From Candidatus Bathyarchaeota archaeon (GTDB lineage: Archaea; Thermoproteota; Bathyarchaeia; Bathyarchaeales; Bathycorpusculaceae): a stretch of DNA of 64,000 bases. The notes under the pieces are model-generated. The model had not been told where the DNA came from and did not search any database. It worked only from the letters and a program-made list of their open reading frames with translations. Each line of letters starts with the position of its first letter. Positions within the stretch are counted from its first letter, which is position 1. The DNA is taken from contig OY970280.1 in NCBI GenBank assembly GCA_963715865.1, positions 544,001-608,000 of the forward strand, read 5' to 3'. Of the stretch, positions 5,111-55,479 are shown in pieces. The position numbers and the translations under genes are program-made.

Positions 5111-6157
5111 ATGCCTAGAATAATCCCTCCATGGGAAATCAAACGTGAACTGTTGACTAAAGCAGAGGACACGACCAACCCAAAGTATGGGCACAGGCCC
5201 TCTGAAAGACCAGCAAAAGAATACATCCAATACGGCACAATAAACCTTGACAAACCAGCTGGTCCAACAAGTCACGAAGTTGCCGCATGGGTAAAAAAAA
5301 TCATGCACCTGAACAATATCGGCCACGGCGGAACTCTAGAGGCTTAAGCAACAAGCCAGAGAAATCCCAAAGTGACCGGCATTTTACCCATCACCTTAGA
5401 GGATGCTACGAAGGTGGTTCAGGCGTTTCTCTACAGCGGCAAAGAATACGTTTGCGTAATGAAACTTCATGGAGATGTTAAAGAAGAACAAATTAAACCG
5501 GTTCTCAAAGAATTTGAGGATGAAATTTACCAGCGTCCACCTTTGCGTTCCTCAGTTAAACGGCAACTAAGAACCAGACGCATATACTACATAGACTATC
5601 TGGAACTTGATGGGCGCAATGTTCTTTTCAAAGTTGGCTGCGAAGCGGGAACATACATACGCAAACTCTGCTTTGACATCGGCGAAATCCTAGGCGTCGG
5701 CGCTCACATGCAAGAACTGCGCAGGACACGCTCAGGATCATTCATTGAAACTAGCGCTACAAAAGTTACCTTGCATGATGTGGCTTACTGGTTTGGGGAA
5801 TGGGAACAGAAAAAAGACGAAGCAATCCTGCACAAATTCATTGAACCTATGGAAAACGCGTTAACTTTGCTTCCGAAAATTGTGGTTCGTGACTCAGCTG
5901 TTGATGCACTTTGTCATGGTGCAAACTTGACTGCTCCAGGCGTATTGTCGGTTGAAGCAGGCATCGAGAAAGGTTCGATTCTGACTATTTTCACGTTGAA
6001 AGGTGAAGCAGTGGCGTTGGCGAAAGCGCTTGCCTCGACCGAGGAAATGTTAACTTTAAAGCATGGTGCTGTTGCTGCTCTCGAGAGAGTGCTGATGCTG
6101 AGGGGTACTTATCCGAAGGTTTGGAAAAGCGGTAACGTGAATGAGCAGAGACAATAA
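5111..6157 (+). CDS. cbf5: H/ACA RNA-guided pseudouridine synthase Cbf5; join(5111..5339,5364..6157), 340 aa
   Basis: LDKPAGPTSHEV, GHGGTL|D|PKVTG after splicing, C-terminal PUA domain. Confidence 0.95.
5340..5363 (+). other. 24-nt BHB intron in cbf5 mRNA
   Basis: CTCT/AGAG central helix, AGA and AAA bulges, GGCTT/AAGCC inner stem; contains in-frame TAA; removal rebuilds the catalytic Asp codon. Confidence 0.92.
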
Positions 6158-8004: not shown

Positions 8005-8080
8005 GGAGCCTCGAGCGGGCCTTGATCCCGCGGCCTGCTGCTTACAAGGCAGCCGCTCTACCGGGCTGAGCTATCGAGGC
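8005..8080 (-). tRNA. tRNA-Thr(UGU)
   Basis: GCCTCGA/TCGAGGC acceptor, GCTGC-CTTGTAA-GCAGC anticodon arm; atypical T-loop ATCAAGG. Confidence 0.9.
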
Positions 8081-16534: not shown

Positions 16535-16561
16535 CAAACGCCAAACAAACACCACCAATGG
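16535..16561 (+). other. 5' arm of 23S processing stem with BHB-like motif (pairs with 19584-19610)
   Basis: CAAA-CGCC-AAA-CAAACACCACCAATGG pairs with CCATTGATGGTGTTTG-AGCG-ATA-TTTG (one C.A mismatch in the central helix). Confidence 0.75.
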
Positions 16562-16564
16562 CCC

Positions 16565-19580
<3,016 letters not shown>

Positions 19581-19855
19581 AGTCCATTGATGGTGTTTGA
19601 GCGATATTTGCGTGAGACAGTTTCGGTGTGGAGTGTGATAAGTTATGTTTGGTCCTGTGCATGGCGTATGTCATAATTTTGATCTATTTCAATTATAATC
19701 AGCATTCTAACTTAATTTACTTCAATTGTTTACGTTACGATAAATTCAAATTTCTAAACCAGCACAAGGCTTCTTGAGCATGCATGAGTGAGAAAAAGCG
19801 GGGTATCTTCCATTTAGAAGGTGACGATTTTTTGCGGAAATAGACCATTTTTCCA

Positions 19856-45259: not shown

Positions 45260-46024
45260 TTAATCGACCATTAAAGGTCTTTTCTGCGGAACCTGACTCG
45301 CAAGCTTAGATTCGCCGATTTTAGCGACCGTAGCAACGTTTGTTAAGGCTCCGCGAAATTCTGATTCAAAAGCTTGAATTGCAGCAAGGTAAACTTCCTT
45401 AGTTACATTAGCCCTAGTCACCAAAAGATCGCCAAGACGGTAATCGAAAGCGCCTTGCAGCGCACCGCCCGAAGCCGTAACAAGAATTCTACGGCACGCT
45501 AAAGCAACAGCCGCTTGAATGCAAGCACGGTACTTTTTGCTTTTAGGATCAACCTGATCCGTCAAGCTGTCAACGTACCCATTAGCAAAGTTGATATGCG
45601 ATAAAACAGCGACTTGAGCTATAGGAAGCCCAAACACCATAAAAGTTTTAGACGCTGAATCAAACGTCATCTGCAAAGCGTTCACTACAGCCCGCTCATC
45701 AGCATAAACGGCAGCACCTGCTTTAAGAGAATCCACAACTAAAGCCGGGTAATCTTTAACTTGCGTAAAATTGGATAATGTACCCGTAACTTGAATCATC
45801 CATAAACCTGTCGGAGCATCGCCCGCGAGATTATACAAAAACTGATACATCCCAACGCTTTTTTTCGTTAAGTTAGAAAGACTTTGCGTCGCGACAGTTC
45901 CACCATTCGGATCAATGATTATTACAGAAACTGTAGTCGGATCAAACAAACTTCCATTTTGATCCTTGAACGTAAATATTTTGGCGACTGTACCGCCAGG
46001 ATTCAAACTTTCACTCATCAACAT
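45260..46024 (-). CDS. Head-tail adaptor-like protein with N-terminal Ig-like domain
   Basis: Directly after MCP; YADERAVVNAL...HINFANGYVD. Confidence 0.6.
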   Translation of the reverse strand: MLMSESLNPGGTVAKIFTFKDQNGSLFDPTTVSVIIIDPNGGTVATQSLSNLTKKSVGMYQFLYNLAGDAPTGLWMIQVTGTLSNFTQVKDYPALVVDSLKAGAAVYADERAVVNALQMTFDSASKTFMVFGLPIAQVAVLSHINFANGYVDSLTDQVDPKSKKYRACIQAAVALACRRILVTASGGALQGAFDYRLGDLLVTRANVTKEVYLAAIQAFESEFRGALTNVATVAKIGESKLASQVPQKRPLMVD

Positions 46025-46104
46025 TACCTGATTATTTTGATTATTTTGATTTTAAAAAATAAAAAAAAGGGAGTAAAGTTTTTGTGCTTTTTGTGCTATT
46101 GCGT

Positions 46105-47093
46105 TTAGCTTGTTAGACAGTTCGTAATTTTGGCTATGCATTCACCGTTCGTGATTACCGGCGCGTATCTTGTCGTTAAAATTGGCTTAACAAGTTCTTT
46201 GCTCTTGAGCAATTCAACATCAGTGGTCAATGGGCGTTTTAATTCTCTGGTGCTATTGAGGAACAAGCCTGTTCCTTATGGCTACCATCTAAGAAAAATC
46301 CAAGCGGCGCTTGCACTTAATCATAAAAGGCTGCTATGGTTGCCTTCTGATTAATATATGCCGCGCTTAGGTTTTTGCCCGTACTGATGCAATACACTGT
46401 ACCCGCAGGCACAACGTTGCTCCAGCAAAGTTCCCATTCGCCAAGCATCTGCATTGGTTTCTGGGTAATTGGGCTGATAACGTCGTGGTATAAGCTGTAG
46501 TTCGGCAAGTTTTTGATGTCTCGTTTTTGCACTGGATTGCAAAGTATCGTATCCATCAGGAAGTCAGCTTTATTGATTAATGCTTCTGCATTATTGAAAT
46601 CTTCCATACCAGGCGTGCCTGCCTTCGTGAATTCAGTGCCTGTGACAGTGATAGTTTTGCCTGTGCAAGCGTTACTGTTTGCTCCTGGGCATGCCAGATC
46701 AATGACGCCTGAGCAATCTAATTCGATTTGGAAGGCCAACCGCCTCGCAAGTCTTTTGAGTTGCTGGTTAATCACTGGTAGGTCAACGTCTTCAACGACT
46801 TCCTTGGGGATTTCAACGGATTCGCCGCGTTTATACGGGCTTATGGTAACGTAAGACATCGGTGTATAGTCAACTGGAACTGCAGTGCCAGGCGCGATTT
46901 CGCTAATTCCCGTGCTTCTTACACCTGCTTCTTTAACGTAAGTTTTTGTCCTTCCAGATTTTAAGACGTCGTCAGTGAACAGCCGCTTCGTTATCAAGTT
47001 TGGCATAGTCAACTCAAGAATTACCTGATGCAATTCGGGGTACTGAATGGCTGCTGAATCAACAAATGCTAAAGCATCTTCATTAAAACTCAT
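46105..47093 (-). CDS. Major capsid protein (HK97-like); complement join(46105..46241,46289..46310,46356..47093), 298 aa
   Basis: Follows protease and cement genes; ISPYKRGESVEIPKEVVED...LARRLA; spliced C-terminus AAYAPLGFFLVKRPLTTDVE...TRYAPVITNGECIAKIT. Confidence 0.88.
46242..46288 (-). other. MCP intron 2 (47 nt, canonical BHB)
   Basis: TTTT/AAAA outer helix, TCTT/GAGA central helix, AGA and ATT bulges, TGGT/ACCA plus AGGAACA/TGTTCCT inner stems. Confidence 0.9.
46311..46355 (-). other. MCP intron 1 (45 nt, canonical BHB)
   Basis: GCG/CGC outer helix, GCAT/GTGC central helix, ATA and AAG bulges, TTAATCA/TGATTAA inner stem; in-frame TAA. Confidence 0.9.
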
Positions 47094-47114
47094 GTTTGTT
47101 TTTTCCTCCTGTGT

Positions 47115-47564
47115 TTATCCGAAGATTATCTGCACTTGAGCGTTGGCTACTCCGCCAATTACTACAACGCCCCTTCGGTTTTGCTGAGCGTTGATGGCTG
47201 CTGCGACTTTAGTTTCATCTATGCCGCTGGTGTCAAGATCTCCGGCGACATATGTGTGCATTAAAGCGATACCCGCGTTGCCTGATGTGATGACGTTGCC
47301 TGCTACGAGAGTTACGCCTGACGTGTTTTTGCAGCGTATTCTGTGGCCGAAAACGTACACGTTGAGAGCTCCGTTTCCGCCTTTCGCAACTGACTGAACG
47401 AATCCGACAAACGCTGGATTTGCGCCTGCGCATAAGCTAACTTTGTTGTCGCTTGAAACGTAAACTGGGTCGCCAACTGCTGGGCTTGTGTAACCTGAAT
47501 CAGGGAAGAATGTCTGCTCTAGGTCTGGAACAACTTTTGGTCCTGAACCTTCAAAATAAGCCAT
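47115..47564 (-). CDS. Capsid cement/decoration-like protein
   Basis: 149 aa, Gly/Ala/Val-rich beta pattern, between scaffold and MCP. Confidence 0.65.
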   Translation of the reverse strand: MAYFEGSGPKVVPDLEQTFFPDSGYTSPAVGDPVYVSSDNKVSLCAGANPAFVGFVQSVAKGGNGALNVYVFGHRIRCKNTSGVTLVAGNVITSGNAGIALMHTYVAGDLDTSGIDETKVAAAINAQQNRRGVVVIGGVANAQVQIIFG

Positions 47565-47566
47565 TT

Positions 47567-48646
47567 TTATTCCTCCTCTTCCTCGTGCACAGTTAAGTCG
47601 GCAGTTAAGCCGCCCATGCGCTTCGCAGCAGCCGCCAATTCAAGGCCTGCTTTTTGCAAGTTACCTTTTCTGGCGAATATGTTGTTTAGCCTTTGAGCAT
47701 CATCTAAGGGAGCATTCAAGCTTCCAACTGTACCTTTACCTGTTGGTTTAGGTCTAGGCACTAATGCTGCTACTGCCGCTTTAACGTCTGCTTCCAATTT
47801 TGCTTCATGTTTAGTCATTGCTTCCGCGATTGCAGCTTTGCATGCATCCAGAATTTGCGTTGTGTTCTTAGTCATTTCCTGCACAAAATCGTCGTACGTC
47901 AATTCCGCGCCAGCTTTCGTTGGCGCCATTGGAACCTGTGGTGGTACTATCGGTGTTTCTGGTGGTTCTGTTGGTTTTGCACTCATTTGTTTTTTTTCTC
48001 CTATTTTTATTGTTTGGTTAAACTCGGGTTTGCCGAGCTGTACCTTTGATTTAAGCTCCTTGATGCCGCATGGACACTTTGACTTATCCGCGCACTCGCA
48101 GACTGAAGCTATCAATGTCTTGCGCTGCGATTCATCCATTGCAGCAGCGAACCCTTTCGGACGGAACTTACTGTTTTTATATGCGCCCTCTGCAACGATG
48201 GAAAGTTCAACGCACTGCGGCTTATGCACTATCTCGTAAGCACCAGCACACAAGTGAACCATAACCATGTTGTCGTCTCTTGTTCTGCCACTGCACAAAC
48301 TGCAGACTATTTCGTTGGAAACAACTTTAGGGCTCACCATAGTCAAATATTTTTTTTGAATCTGCGTTAAAAGCACGGGGTCGCTGGAAACTTCAGCCTC
48401 AAACAAAACCTTGTTTCCATCACGCCGAGCTTTCCTAACCAAGCCTTTAACGTCGCAAACGTCAGTTCCATGATCTATTCGAACCTGCACGCCAGTAAGC
48501 GTAGCCGCAAAATAATCCAAATCTTCCGGCGGTACCTGCCAATTATTCTTGTTAATGGAAACGTCGATAGCTTCGCCTTCGATAATTATGGTTTTTTGGA
48601 TTTCATCAAGGCTTGCCTGGACGTCCACATCGTATTTTAATTCCAT
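47567..48646 (-). CDS. Prohead protease-scaffold fusion
   Basis: VRIDHG...VKG, VELSIVAEGAY; coiled C-terminus. Confidence 0.75.
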   Translation of the reverse strand: MELKYDVDVQASLDEIQKTIIIEGEAIDVSINKNNWQVPPEDLDYFAATLTGVQVRIDHGTDVCDVKGLVRKARRDGNKVLFEAEVSSDPVLLTQIQKKYLTMVSPKVVSNEIVCSLCSGRTRDDNMVMVHLCAGAYEIVHKPQCVELSIVAEGAYKNSKFRPKGFAAAMDESQRKTLIASVCECADKSKCPCGIKELKSKVQLGKPEFNQTIKIGEKKQMSAKPTEPPETPIVPPQVPMAPTKAGAELTYDDFVQEMTKNTTQILDACKAAIAEAMTKHEAKLEADVKAAVAALVPRPKPTGKGTVGSLNAPLDDAQRLNNIFARKGNLQKAGLELAAAAKRMGGLTADLTVHEEEEE

Positions 48647-48693: not shown

Positions 48694-50075
48694 CTAGAAA
48701 GTGATTTTTGTCGGCATTTGCTTTTGATTTCCCTGGTTCTCGCCAAAATTATCGAAAGTAGATTGCTGCGGCTGCTTCAAGTTACCGCTGATCGTTTCTG
48801 GTAAGCCAAGTTCAGCGCGGGCTTCCGTGTTGCCCATAAGCATGCCATTATATAAATCGAGAACACGCTGCATTTTCACGTCTGTCGGCGGCTCCCAAAT
48901 AGGCTTCCACTTCATCCTCGGAATTTTATCCGCAGTTATCAGGCTTTCAGGAAAATCGCCGCGCAAAATTAACGGAAACAACTGCGTCTCGTAAACGCCG
49001 CTTTTGTGTTTTTGGCGCATTCTGAGCCGCGTAATAAATTCCTGCATGACCACTTCCGCAGTTGCTCTATTCGTGCCTTCACTTTCGCCTAGGAATATTT
49101 TGGGTACGCCAAGCTGGGAATCACGCTGCCGCTCCAAATATTGAATCCACCATTCCACCCTAAGATCGCGAGTCATCGAGCCCTGAGGCGTAACCTTGAC
49201 CTCTCCACTCAAAACCAAATCCGTACCTTGATCGCGCTGTGACACTTCGATCCAAAAGCGCCTGCATTTTTTCAGCGCTCCACGGCTGCTGCTGCACCTA
49301 CAGCTCCGTCTCCACCGCATGAAAGCACAAGCATAGGCTTCGTGTAAACCTTCATTATTTTAGCCATATCAACTTGAAAATCATCAATCAAGGCTTGAAC
49401 ATGAAGAATTGAACGTAACGCAGAAGTTCCATAGGCATTTTCAAACCGCCACGATTTAACACCATTTAAAGTCCTGTAAATTTCTTCAGGATCAAAAATG
49501 ACTGGTGGATAAGAAGTAAGTTGAGCATAGCCAAAAATGTTCTTATAGCAATCTTGGCGAATTCGCATATCGCACGGATCCAAAGTTTTCAGCCATTCCA
49601 CGCGGCTTGAATCTTCATCCATGCACGGCTCCGTATAGCTTGAACCAAAGACCAAAGCATCAGTTTCCTCACTGCGCATAGTTGAAAGTAGATCATGCGA
49701 CTCAATCCATTCTTCCAAAAAATCTCGGAAAGTAGCTGTTCCGCCTTCGAGAACAAAGCCGTTAGAAATTGTTAAGATTAACCTAACATCAACGATAGCT
49801 TGAATTCGCGGAGTAAACGAGTACAAAGCCTTGTACTTCGGCAAATCCTCGATTGGAGTAACTCCCCAAATGCGATCCCAAAGCGACGTATAAGGACTGC
49901 TGACAAAGCCTATACCAGCCGCCTTCAAAGTGTAGTTGTTAACGTACTGCATAAGATTCCAGTCGCCGCGCCAAGCCACAGGAACTTCCCTTTCACGCTG
50001 CGCAACGGCTATTTCATTTGGCACGTTACGCAGCGGATTAGGCATAGTCAGCGACAAATCTTTCCTAAGCGGCAT
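48694..50075 (-). CDS. Portal protein; frame broken near 49250-49300
   Basis: Continuous portal-like sequence across ORFs 49272-50075 and 48694-49320 (LKTLDP, YGTSALRS, LGVPKIFLG, EARAELG). Confidence 0.82.
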
Positions 50076-50089
50076 TTACATTTTTTCAC

Positions 50090-50302
50090 CTACTGCTTTT
50101 TCCTCGGTTTCTTTTCTTCTTCAACGTCGGCGGTTATTTGCAAGTCATCCAAAACAACGTCTTGCATCAAGTCAACACCGTTAATTTTTACGTGCAACTT
50201 ACCCATCCGCACGTTTGCAACTTCAATACCAAGAACCTTAACGATTTCGTCCTTGGCATTTGCAGACAACAAAGTTTTTTCCATTTTAATCATCATCATC
50301 AA
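50090..50302 (-). CDS. Small hypothetical protein
   Basis: 70-aa ORF between terL and portal. Confidence 0.5.
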   Translation of the reverse strand: MMMMIKMEKTLLSANAKDEIVKVLGIEVANVRMGKLHVKINGVDLMQDVVLDDLQITADVEEEKKPRKKQ

Positions 50303-51630
50303 CTATTTTTTTCCTGATCACTGCGACGCCAACGCCTGAGGAAGGCAACGGAGACCGCGCAGCACCATAACACGCCAAAGCCATGCTCCAGAAGACATCA
50401 TCATGCCCGCCTTCAGGATGACTAAACCGCAAATGCCCCGTCTTCATCAACTCGTACTTTTCAATGTTCAATTCAGCCGTCAAATCAACATCTTCAATCT
50501 TTCGGGCTGGAACATAAGGAATCTTCACTTCACCGCCACGCATCTTCTCACGCAATATCGTGGCCATCTCCTCTTTGACTTTGAACCGTGAAAGTCACGC
50601 CCAGCAACGCCCTGGATTCCGCTGCGCACCATATCCTCAACAATATAGTTGCCAACACCGGTAACATCCGCATACACGGCTCGAATCGTTTTCCAACGGT
50701 CCTGCAGGCTCTTAATGTACCCGATTACTGAAGCATATTCGGTCTTAAGCGGAAAACGGTGAACATGAATCACCCGCAACAACGACCCTTGCTTCTCAAC
50801 CACCAGGACCACACTGAAATCCTGTTCCTTGCCAAAATCTACGCCAACATAAAACTCGCCTTGAGGCAAGGCCTGAAAATCAAGAGGCTGCAAGTTACTG
50901 TCAATACAGGTAACAATAAGGCTCTGCGTAAGCCAAGCATCAACATCCTCAACGAATTCAGCCATAAACTCCCGCTGAAAACGCTCAAACGGCAACTGAG
51001 ACCGCATCTCATCAATAAAACTCTGCTTAACAAGCCCGCTGCGCACAACATCCTCGCAGGTTATAGCATGCTTACTAAAATCTTTGCTCTGACACATACG
51101 GTAAAAAACGCTGTCTTTACTCCAAGGCGTGCTCAGGCGATCAAGGCGCCATCCGTCGTAGATAGCATCGGATAAAGCACATTATAGAAAACGAGCTCAT
51201 CATCCTTGAAGAACGCGCTCTCGTCAGCAAATAACTTGGTGCGCAGTGTAACCCCTGAGCATCTGAGGACTATTAGGCAAAGCAACAATACGCGATACCA
51301 TTCTTGAACCGAACAGTCGTTCTTTGCAACTTATCAACAAGTATCAATCTGCTTTTCTTTCGGTAAGCTCGCCGAGAAAGTCTTGAATGCGATCGGACAT
51401 AATCATGCTCTGCCGCAACAGTCGGCGCCACAATCAACGTCAACGTCTTCGGATAGCGTCAAGCGCAAACCAAATCGCCCTCAAAGCAATACACGTGGTT
51501 TTCCCAGCTTGCCTACTCCAGCGAACACAATCCGCTTGCTCTCATCCCGCAGAAGCTCAGCCTGATAAGCCTTAACATCAAAGCCAAAGAAGTCCCCAGC
51601 AACAAACAAAACTGGATCTTCAGGAGTCAC
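50286..51630 (-). CDS. terL: Terminase large subunit; many single-base frameshifts
   Basis: Reconstructed SRQAGKTT, LIVAPT.RQS, DESAFF, STPW, REFMAEF, YVGVDFG..D, HDDVFWSMALA. Confidence 0.88.
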
Positions 51631-54506: not shown

Positions 54507-54542
54507 GCGGGCCCGCCGGGATTCGAACCCGGGAACCTCTGC
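54507..54542 (-). repeat. tRNA 3' half (att core candidate)
   Basis: Reverse complement GCAGAGGTTCCCGGGTTCGAATCCCGGCGGGCCCGC = T-arm plus acceptor 3' strand; no 5' half upstream. Confidence 0.8.
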
Positions 54543-54624: not shown

Positions 54625-55479
54625 TTAAGACACATAATCTTTACCTCCAGAACCCTTAGGCGCCCTCTTATCGACATCAACATCAAAAAGCTCAGTTAGA
54701 ATCCCAGTTATCTTCTGAAGCGCCTTATCGCTCTTCTCCAAAGCATCAAGCTTCTGCAAAGCCAAATCAATAGCATCCGAAAAACTGGCAATAACCTCAA
54801 CCGCATCCGGATGCGTCCTGTCACCAACCTTAATCACAATGCCATGGCTCAACTCAAAATCGCGAATAACCATATACGGCAACCGCTCACCGCTACTGTA
54901 AGGAAAATGCCCGCTCTTAGGCCTGATACGCTCCAAAACAGGATTCAACAACTTCATGTCAGTAAGCAGGCCAGTGTTAACGAACGCGTCACAAAACAAC
55001 TGCTTCGCCTTACCCAAGTTACCAGGCCGCCGAACATGCAAAGTAACCGTACCACTCTCAAACCAAACCACACGCCCCAAACGGCACTTCCAAACAAGAA
55101 ACCTATTTCGAGCCTTACTCAACACCCAACCAAAACCAACCCCGCACCGCTCAACGTCTAATTTAACAACACGCCTTAACGCTTCACTTAAAGCGCCATC
55201 AAGCCTCACCTTAGCCTTAAAACAATGAAAACTTGAACACTTTGAACCTCGTTCATTTCGATAGTAATACTTCCACTCCCACTTAGTCTTAGAAACATAG
55301 TTGTGATAGCGCTTGTAGCTTAAATCTAGCAATTTGCAGATCTGTTTAGGAGTCAACAATGGATCAGAATGCCCATCGCCATCTAAAACGTCAAAGATTT
55401 GTTTTCTAATATTATTACTATTACTACTCTTACTGTAAGAGTTCAAACCGCGTGAAGTGGTGTCCGGTAGTTTAGCCAA
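54625..55479 (-). CDS. Hypothetical protein with N-terminal HTH
   Basis: LLTPKQICKLLDLSY HTH-like segment; 284 aa. Confidence 0.7.
   Translation of the reverse strand: MAKLPDTTSRGLNSYSKSSNSNNIRKQIFDVLDGDGHSDPLLTPKQICKLLDLSYKRYHNYVSKTKWEWKYYYRNERGSKCSSFHCFKAKVRLDGALSEALRRVVKLDVERCGVGFGWVLSKARNRFLVWKCRLGRVVWFESGTVTLHVRRPGNLGKAKQLFCDAFVNTGLLTDMKLLNPVLERIRPKSGHFPYSSGERLPYMVIRDFELSHGIVIKVGDRTHPDAVEVIASFSDAIDLALQKLDALEKSDKALQKITGILTELFDVDVDKRAPKGSGGKDYVS

Follow-up and report, generated by a model that had tools for sequence, protein, structure and literature searches.

Two tandem bulge-helix-bulge introns very probably interrupt the major capsid gene of a Bathyarchaeia head-tail provirus

How could a head-tail virus make its major capsid protein (MCP) from a gene that stops early and resumes in another frame? 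The question was raised by a gene in the window, our name for the whole 64,000-nucleotide (nt) stretch that was analysed (contig OY970280.1, positions 544,001 to 608,000). The host is a Bathyarchaeia archaeon from peat soil, and the gene belongs to a virus integrated in its chromosome. An earlier note, made from the sequence alone, had interpreted the interruption as two tandem bulge-helix-bulge (BHB) introns that split the capsid gene and must be removed, and this part of the interpretation stands on the evidence of the junctions, recurrence in relatives, covariation, selection, host enzymes and the host's cbf5 gene. We consider it very probable that both inserts are genuine BHB introns inside an HK97-type capsid gene and that full-length capsid expression needs host splicing. 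Their removal would most plausibly be the work of the host splicing endonuclease EndA and the ligase RtcB. Below, locus labels (L001 and so on) and protein labels (P0001 and so on) refer to relatives collected in the analysis; P0001 is from a Bathyarchaeia metagenome-assembled genome (MAG).

In the list of open reading frames (ORFs), the unspliced MCP gene started at 47093 and stopped at 46317 on the minus strand, encoding 258 amino acids (aa). The earlier note had the length of this truncated product right, but its final 12 residues would be intron-encoded. Removal of both inserts joined 738, 22 and 137 nt into an 897-nt ORF of 298 aa (Table 1), reading AAY/APLGFFL-V/KRPLTT across the junctions (a slash marks a junction or cut throughout). 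The corresponding RNA junctions were predicted as GCATAT/GCGCCG for intron 1 and TTCTTAG/TAAAACG for intron 2, and the junction peptides of the predicted 298-aa product as AAYAPLGFFLVK. Unspliced and half-spliced RNAs were predicted to give truncated products of 258 or 269 aa, without the conserved C-terminal ∼50 residues. Insert coordinates, insert lengths and the micro-exon were all as first described, and the splice reconstruction reproduced the 298-aa ORF that had been derived from the EndA cut rule.

A protein search with the 258-aa ORF returned 35 homologs, mostly 296–300 aa in length, which covered only the first 95% of the query. The best of them, P0001 (298 aa), was 96% identical over the compared part and read uninterrupted as NLSAAYAPLGFFLVKRPLTTDVELLKSKELVKPILTTRYAPVITNGECIAAITGCATS, equal to the predicted spliced product across both junctions. 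Exon 1 was ∼90% identical to the P0001/L001 MCP (tblastn), and exon 3 matched the C-terminus of P0001 and of further homologs. The stretch AAY-APLGFFL-V-KRP, expected in the earlier note to be contiguous in homologous MCPs, was thus unbroken in P0001, and most homologs ran well beyond 258 aa. The DNA of the P0001 gene was fetched from five independent contigs, four of which (L001, L002, L004, and L005) were aligned with the window gene using MAFFT. The alignment contained two gaps, exactly 45 and 47 nt long, at the cuts predicted from the BHB motifs. Because the bases at the gap edges permit no sliding of either boundary, homology by itself fixes the junctions, and they fall exactly where the BHB rule places them.

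That rule, cutting by EndA after the second nt of each 3-nt bulge, is established knowledge and was used for all BHB motifs. Both inserts had outer (exon–exon) and inner (intron) helices, h and h′, and two 3-nt bulges on opposite strands with a 4-bp central helix between them, and the bulges and central helix were arranged in the same way in every insert detected among the relatives. BHB1 spanned 46370–46300 (cuaagcgcg-GCAU-AU/A-UUAAUCA ... UGAUUAA-GUGC-AA/G-cg(c)cgcuugg). Its central helix was GCAU:GUGC, its bulges AU/A and AA/G, and its outer helix CUAAGCGCG : CG(C)CGCUUGG comprised 9 bp with one C bulged, while the inner stem began with 7 bp (UUAAUCA:UGAUUAA) and resumed beyond an internal loop. 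BHB2 spanned 46298–46237 (uuuu-UCUU-AG/A-UGGU ... ACCA-GAGA-AU/U-aaaa), with central helix UCUU:GAGA, bulges AG/A and AU/U, outer helix UUUU:AAAA, and a 4-bp inner helix UGGU:ACCA plus an internal hairpin. The micro-exon was fully used: the 11 nt at its start pair with exon 1 as part of BHB1, and the 10 nt at its end supply the exon strand (outer and central helix) of BHB2.

The minimum free energy (MFE) structure of 46372–46228 computed with RNAfold had −42.1 kcal/mol, compared with −29.9 ± 3.5 for shuffles (z = −3.5); it formed BHB1 completely and, of BHB2, the central and inner helices only. The outer helix of BHB1 has the 9 bp and bulged C described above and not the 3 bp first reported. 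Modest-quality BHB motifs occurred genome-wide with a background of ∼6.5e-5 per (position, length) pair, and chance is excluded because the two BHBs sit on alignment-defined boundaries, as do those in the inserts of relatives. In some relatives h was only 1 bp, a relaxed form (HBh′); crenarchaeal-type EndA accepts such motifs (PMC2724299).

A BHB scan of other virus genes had been suggested in the earlier note, and in further capsid genes such introns indeed recurred. An alignment of 18 homologs served to collect loci, 44 of them from GTDB species genomes (almost all of these Bathyarchaeia MAGs) and another 80 from IMG/VR, and 129 related loci were searched for inserts with tblastn and our own BHB scanner; pattern scans for one insertion site (site D) contributed a further 10 contigs from IMG/VR and 6 from metagenomes. 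Across Bathyarchaeia MAGs, IMG/VR and metagenomes, 31 MCP loci in total carried about 21 distinct BHB introns at four sites (Table 1), and for every insert detected in a relative the BHB cuts reproduced its length. After the pattern scans, site D, which is the site of intron 2, was occupied in 24 loci by 14 distinct introns of 26–68 nt belonging to at least four unrelated sequence families, 13 of these introns and 23 of these loci lying beyond the window. Explicit splicing yielded complete ORFs of 297–303 aa for 15 of 15 genes. The MCP genes of three MAG loci (L021, L047, and L049), with several frameshifts and no inserts, were excluded from the intron counts as errors or decay. The introns of the window are part of a wider set of short BHB introns coming and going at four capsid-gene sites, with site D as a hot spot.

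Intron presence was patchy in a quick maximum-likelihood tree. The 26-member clade of the window was otherwise intron-less (25 others), site D was occupied in at least three separate clades and site A in two, and the sister genes of most intron-bearing genes lacked introns. L043, which carries an intron, shared 90.7% nucleotide identity with the intron-less L025 and 87.5% with the intron-bearing L044. The window provirus had no other intron-like gaps compared to L001 over 12.9 kb. All-ORF tblastn of the ∼7-kb loci found well-supported intron events in the MCP only and none in neighbouring head genes, a pattern subject to ascertainment bias, as the loci were collected via the MCP.

Every MCP intron with a length that is a multiple of three (24, 27, 30, 45, and 57 nt) was observed to hold an in-frame stop (L034, L035, L040, L162, L166, L069, L075, L101/L104, and the window at 46311–46355). 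These amount to about five independent cases, with a chance probability estimated at roughly 0.01. Given an in-frame stop in each such intron, unspliced RNA would therefore never yield a full-length capsid protein carrying the insertion.

Pairing was conserved where sequence was not. The inner helix covaried between L043 (CAGCG/CGCUG) and L044 (CGACG/CGUCG), the exon/intron central helix at site D, UCUU:GAGA in the window, read UCGU:GCGA or UCGU:GCGG in other loci, a compensatory difference, and the stems of the D1 family differed in sequence with pairing preserved; covariation was judged from such compensatory changes. The exons also appeared fitted to the motifs. In the window, 9 of 9 pairs of the BHB1 outer helix were formed; 14 clade members without introns had 3–6 of 9 at these codons, and for BHB2 the values were 4 of 4 compared with 1–3 of 4. 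The exon differences that complete these outer helices were all synonymous, and the helices were complete only in the intron-bearing gene. Exons behind shared introns are under strong purifying selection in the spliced frame. Behind the frame-shifting 68-nt intron of L043 and L044, the exon had a dS (synonymous divergence) of 0.72 and a dN/dS (ratio of non-synonymous to synonymous divergence, ω) of 0.014, with 15 synonymous changes and one non-synonymous; dN/dS was 0.035–0.054 in the exon downstream of the intron common to L035, L040, and L046. For pairs sharing a site-A intron, ω was ∼0.02–0.09 in the measured regions, which lie mostly downstream of the intron.

The host genome encodes both enzymes. 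PF01974 gave two matches to the EndA family (100 and 80 bits) and PF01139 a match to RtcB (593 bits). One EndA product (L130, 1462–2013 on the minus strand, 184 aa) retained Tyr/His/Lys and was closest to the catalytic EndA of Sulfolobus tokodaii and Aeropyrum pernix. The other (L131, 1234–1782 on the plus strand, 183 aa) was a paralog with Thr in place of the catalytic His, as judged by eye, and would fit the structural subunit of an alpha2-beta2 EndA. The host's own cbf5 was interrupted by an in-frame TAA inside a BHB intron (Table 1), and removal of this intron restored the catalytic GGTLD motif, which suggests that the host already has a cellular mRNA needing the same splicing. In the survey of Yokobori 2009 (PMC2738675), the cbf5 intron was recorded only in Desulfurococcales and Sulfolobales, and cbf5 is the single archaeal protein gene with experimentally shown BHB splicing (PMC2738675). 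The aEF-2 gene of this genome was without interruption.

In a search of 20 relatives, 11 genomes of the same genus had a cbf5 match, which was free of stops in 10 of them and in the eleventh (71% complete) was in two pieces with two TGA; in three genomes of other families, the match contained one stop and was 12–24 nt longer. In one relative (G020:C66:1639-4203), cbf5 lay in two pieces 1.6 kb apart within a single 873-aa frame, an arrangement that an intein or some other large insertion in frame may explain. Genome-wide, aragorn -i predicted only 44 tRNA genes in the host, about eight of them with short introns, and several isoacceptors were missing. The remaining tRNAs are probably hidden by non-canonical or multiple introns, which would fit a broad-specificity EndA.

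Taken as a pathway, the pre-mRNA would fold so that each insert, together with 7–13 nt of the upstream exon and 4–10 nt of the downstream exon, forms a helix-bulge-helix-bulge-helix. The host splicing endonuclease, probably an alpha2-beta2 EndA made of a catalytic subunit and the His-less paralog, would cleave each 3-nt bulge behind its second base, and RtcB would ligate the three exons into the mRNA for the 298-aa capsid protein.

The window is archaeal, with an archaeal large-subunit (LSU) rRNA at 16559–19585, and the genome is one contig of 2.35 Mb. PF25209 matched 18 of 18 homologs (28.4 bits for P0001, with a cut-off of 27; best E 2e-12), PHROG major head protein families matched as well, and in P0023 the profile match reached the C-terminus. 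The gene order ran from the large terminase (TerL) and portal through a 359-aa protein at the scaffold/protease position and a 149-aa structural protein to the MCP and the tail tube; the 359-aa protein had no family match, and the 149-aa protein matched the virion structural family phrog_4588. An AlphaFold2 model of an intron-less homolog, built from 18 sequences, was too poor for a fold search (mean pLDDT 52, pTM 0.46), and its long helix at 106–134 would be compatible with a spine helix. Profile matches and gene order thus point to an HK97-type major capsid protein of a head-tail provirus.

In this provirus, the genes for the MCP, the 359-aa protein and the tail tube were intact, as was a tail gene of 449 aa. 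TerL was spread over three frames with 7 in-frame stops compared to the intact L001 homolog, and the portal was frameshifted (Table 1). The indels of TerL and portal were outside homopolymers and clustered in TerL, and are therefore read as decay. A second, divergent head-tail provirus was found on the same chromosome at ∼1,697,000–1,714,300, with single-frame TerL (24% identity) and portal (46%), and its MCP was intron-less, 313 aa in length and 44% identical to P0001. In the window, the 3′ half of a tRNA-Thr(TGT) was present at ∼54507–54542, which ARAGORN, with introns allowed, joined to a 5′ part 427 nt away. A complete tRNA-Thr(TGT) was found at 8005–8080. The half copy, which adjoins a 284-aa ORF (54625–55479), may be an attachment-site remnant of the provirus.

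Table 1. Coordinates of the capsid gene parts, the cbf5 intron, neighbouring head genes and the four intron insertion sites in related capsid genes (sites are given by capsid residue).
Feature	Position	Strand	Details
MCP exon 1	46356..47093	-	738 nt, codons 1-246, ends GCG GCA TAT = AAY; ORF list and splice reconstruction
Intron 1	46311..46355	-	45 nt, in-frame TAA; exact gap compared to intron-less relatives, own BHB scanner, MFE
Micro-exon 2	46289..46310	-	22 nt, GCGCCGCTTGGATTTTTCTTAG, codes APLGFFL and first base of V
Intron 2	46242..46288	-	47 nt, shifts frame; exact gap compared to relatives, BHB scanner
MCP exon 3	46105..46241	-	137 nt including TAA stop; completes the V codon with two bases, followed by KRPLTTDVELLKSKELVKPILTTRYAPVITNGECIAKITNCLTS
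359-aa and 149-aa head genes	47115..48646	-	intact; L001 tblastn 86% and 70% identity, single frame
Portal and large terminase	48757..51624	-	portal 48757-50075, frameshift near 49317-49248; TerL 50292-51624
Host cbf5	5144-6127	+	interrupted by in-frame TAA inside BHB intron
cbf5 BHB intron	5340..5363	+	24 nt, CUCU-AG/A-GGCUU...AAGCC-AGAG-AA/A; removal restores GHGGTLDPKVTG
Site A	after residue 28 (HIIEL/TMPA)		L069 57 nt; L075 30 nt; L106, L112, L115 31 nt
Site B	after residue ~200		L101, L104 24 nt; outer helix 11 bp
Site C	after residue 246		window alone, 45 nt
Site D	after residue 252/253 (FFV/IKRP)		window 47 nt; L034, L035, L040 27 nt; L045 29 nt; L046 26 nt; L043, L044 68 nt

Several observations weigh against two spliced introns in this gene. 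No RNA run covering 45900–47300 or 46105–46700 was found, only peat-metagenome DNA with small shares; splicing is therefore inferred, as are cleavage and ligation in vivo, the responsible enzymes and a selfish as opposed to a regulatory role. A scan of the host genome for ORF-joining BHB motifs found no excess over frame-shifted decoys with six threshold sets, so mRNA splicing is not widespread in this cell, although the scan was crude and relaxed motifs such as that of cbf5 escape it. The outer helix of BHB2, just four A:U pairs, was absent from the MFE structure. Further copies of the two introns were absent from the genome and from the 129 related loci (blastn-short), the intron-1 pattern was not found in IMG/VR, and a pattern spanning both introns and the micro-exon was not found in metagenome contigs. 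The exact introns of the window are unique to its assembly, and site C is thus a single example. Downstream of site D, the window gene had a dN/dS of 0.057 compared to L050/L001, a low value that reflects mostly older history. Finally, unless the broken genes are assembly errors, this provirus copy is probably defective, and its capsid gene may no longer matter here.

As for why the introns are there, they are most likely mobile or selfish passengers, tolerated owing to efficient host splicing, rather than a purpose-built switch. This reading is preferred because the patchy pattern, of frequent gain, loss or exchange, is expected of dispensable, mobile elements. Regulatory gating, by contrast, would have the introns kept so that capsid output depends on EndA and RtcB, whether to time or switch on lysis, to restrict the host range or to let the host control a domesticated provirus, and we consider it unlikely. 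It would account for the need to remove both introns before full-length MCP is made, for exon flanks tuned to the BHB, for in-frame stops that preclude a read-through protein and for the confinement of introns to the MCP within the ∼7-kb loci, but this last pattern carries the ascertainment bias noted above. A gate would hardly be expected to be missing from the 25 other clade members, from most sister genes and from the second provirus of the same host, nor L043 to be nearer an intron-less gene than its intron-bearing counterpart. EndA and RtcB are, moreover, constitutive housekeeping enzymes, and with a provirus that looks defective, splicing-gated virion assembly may be moot in this copy.

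That the inserts disrupt a dead gene in a decaying provirus, stay unremoved and resemble a BHB only incidentally is very unlikely. The broken TerL and portal, the absence of RNA evidence and the uniqueness of both introns to this assembly would be in line with it, yet the inserts obey the BHB rule to the nucleotide and are flanked by synonymously adapted exons, exon 3 is intact and conserved, and 30 other loci have like inserts with purifying selection downstream. The inserts are also single-copy in the genome and without target-site duplication, so a miniature inverted-repeat transposable element or an insertion sequence is ruled out.

Translational bypassing, in which ribosomes hop the 45- and 47-nt gaps with no RNA cutting, as in T4 gene 60 or the yeast mitochondrial 'byps', is highly improbable. 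T4 gene 60 has identical take-off and landing codons and a stop right after take-off. The capsid gene resembles it in having non-coding gaps near the 50-nt size of the gene 60 gap, each with a hairpin and the first with a stop codon. However, the take-off and landing codons differ (TAT precedes gap 1, the gap ends with CAA, and ATT comes next), gap 2 opens in the middle of a codon, no take-off codon is directly followed by a stop, and gap lengths at one site vary from 26 to 68 nt; what is conserved instead is the geometry of two 3-nt bulges 4 bp apart, the signature of EndA. An assembly or sequencing artefact has next to no probability, even for a single-contig MAG and with scattered frameshifts in the long-read MAG loci L021, L047, and L049, as errors, indels included as the earlier note had argued, cannot make structured 45–47-nt inserts at BHB-exact positions and analogous introns occur in independent MAG, IMG/VR and JGI metagenome assemblies.

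Other identities were rejected for the inserts. A self-splicing group I or group II intron is ruled out by the size of 45–47 nt and the absence of an Rfam match to the inserts, the Rfam matches in the window being the LSU rRNA and one tRNA only. An intein is ruled out by the stop or frame shift in each insert, and a programmed frameshift by insert sizes of 45–47 nt and not ±1.

A more far-reaching proposal can also be framed. BHB introns would be recurrent and selected in the capsid genes of a whole Bathyarchaeia head-tail virus family, would spread to preferred sites (with FFV/IKRP as the hot spot) via an RNA-level route such as reverse splicing into abundant late mRNA, and would make dependence on EndA and RtcB a control point or a host-compatibility filter. 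Taken as a whole, this proposal is doubtful, and we offer it tentatively.

Among known systems, the introns compare with the cbf5 pre-mRNA intron of Crenarchaeota in being short, BHB-like, recognised by EndA and located in coding sequence, with exons that are ligated and a patchy presence among relatives, and such an intron is present in the cbf5 of this host (Watanabe 2002; Yokobori 2009, PMC2738675). They differ from it in interrupting a viral structural gene and not a cellular housekeeping gene, in lying as a pair 22 nt apart, and in having four insertion sites in the gene family and many unrelated intron sequences. Archaeal tRNA and rRNA also have BHB introns, reportedly including introns at non-canonical positions and the 'transposed' tRNA introns of Thermoproteales. 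The capsid introns are like these in hBHBh′ geometry, cut rule, size of tens of nt, presence/absence polymorphism and enzymes, but the substrate here would be a translated mRNA, in which codons constrain the exonic portions of the motif and synonymous choices satisfy them; no sequence similarity was found to other introns of this genome. Phage group I introns (T4 td/nrdB, Staphylococcus phage Twort) span several hundred nt, act as ribozymes, often carry a homing endonuclease and are independent of host enzymes. Like them, the capsid introns interrupt virus genes, are patchy among related viruses and would have to be spliced out of the RNA before the protein could be produced, but at 24–68 nt they have no catalytic core and would rely wholly on host protein enzymes.

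Searches of the full-text literature, the coverage of which leaves out subscription journals, yielded no report of BHB introns in protein genes of viruses, in agreement with the earlier note, which knew of none for a head-tail virus capsid gene. A term search of two Bathyarchaeia virus/provirus papers found no mention of introns or splicing. To our knowledge, the published case for BHB splicing in archaeal protein-coding RNAs depends almost wholly on a single gene, cbf5, and the same mechanism would be needed here to make the principal structural protein of a virus.

These capsid genes are truncated or split by gene callers, and unless BHB introns are modelled, the annotation of MCPs and the detection of viruses in archaeal metagenomes will overlook such genes or get their size wrong. 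With intron-bearing and intron-less alleles at ∼90% nucleotide identity and exon codons tuned to the motif, the family offers a natural system for the gain, loss and site preference of BHB introns. The viruses are uncultured, and their hosts, the Bathyarchaeia, are among the most abundant archaeal groups of sediment and peat. If our reading is true, capsid synthesis in these viruses would require the tRNA-splicing enzymes of the host, a virus–host dependency of a new kind; and if the introns did serve as a control point, this would be the first virus to employ the archaeal tRNA-splicing pathway for its own protein genes.

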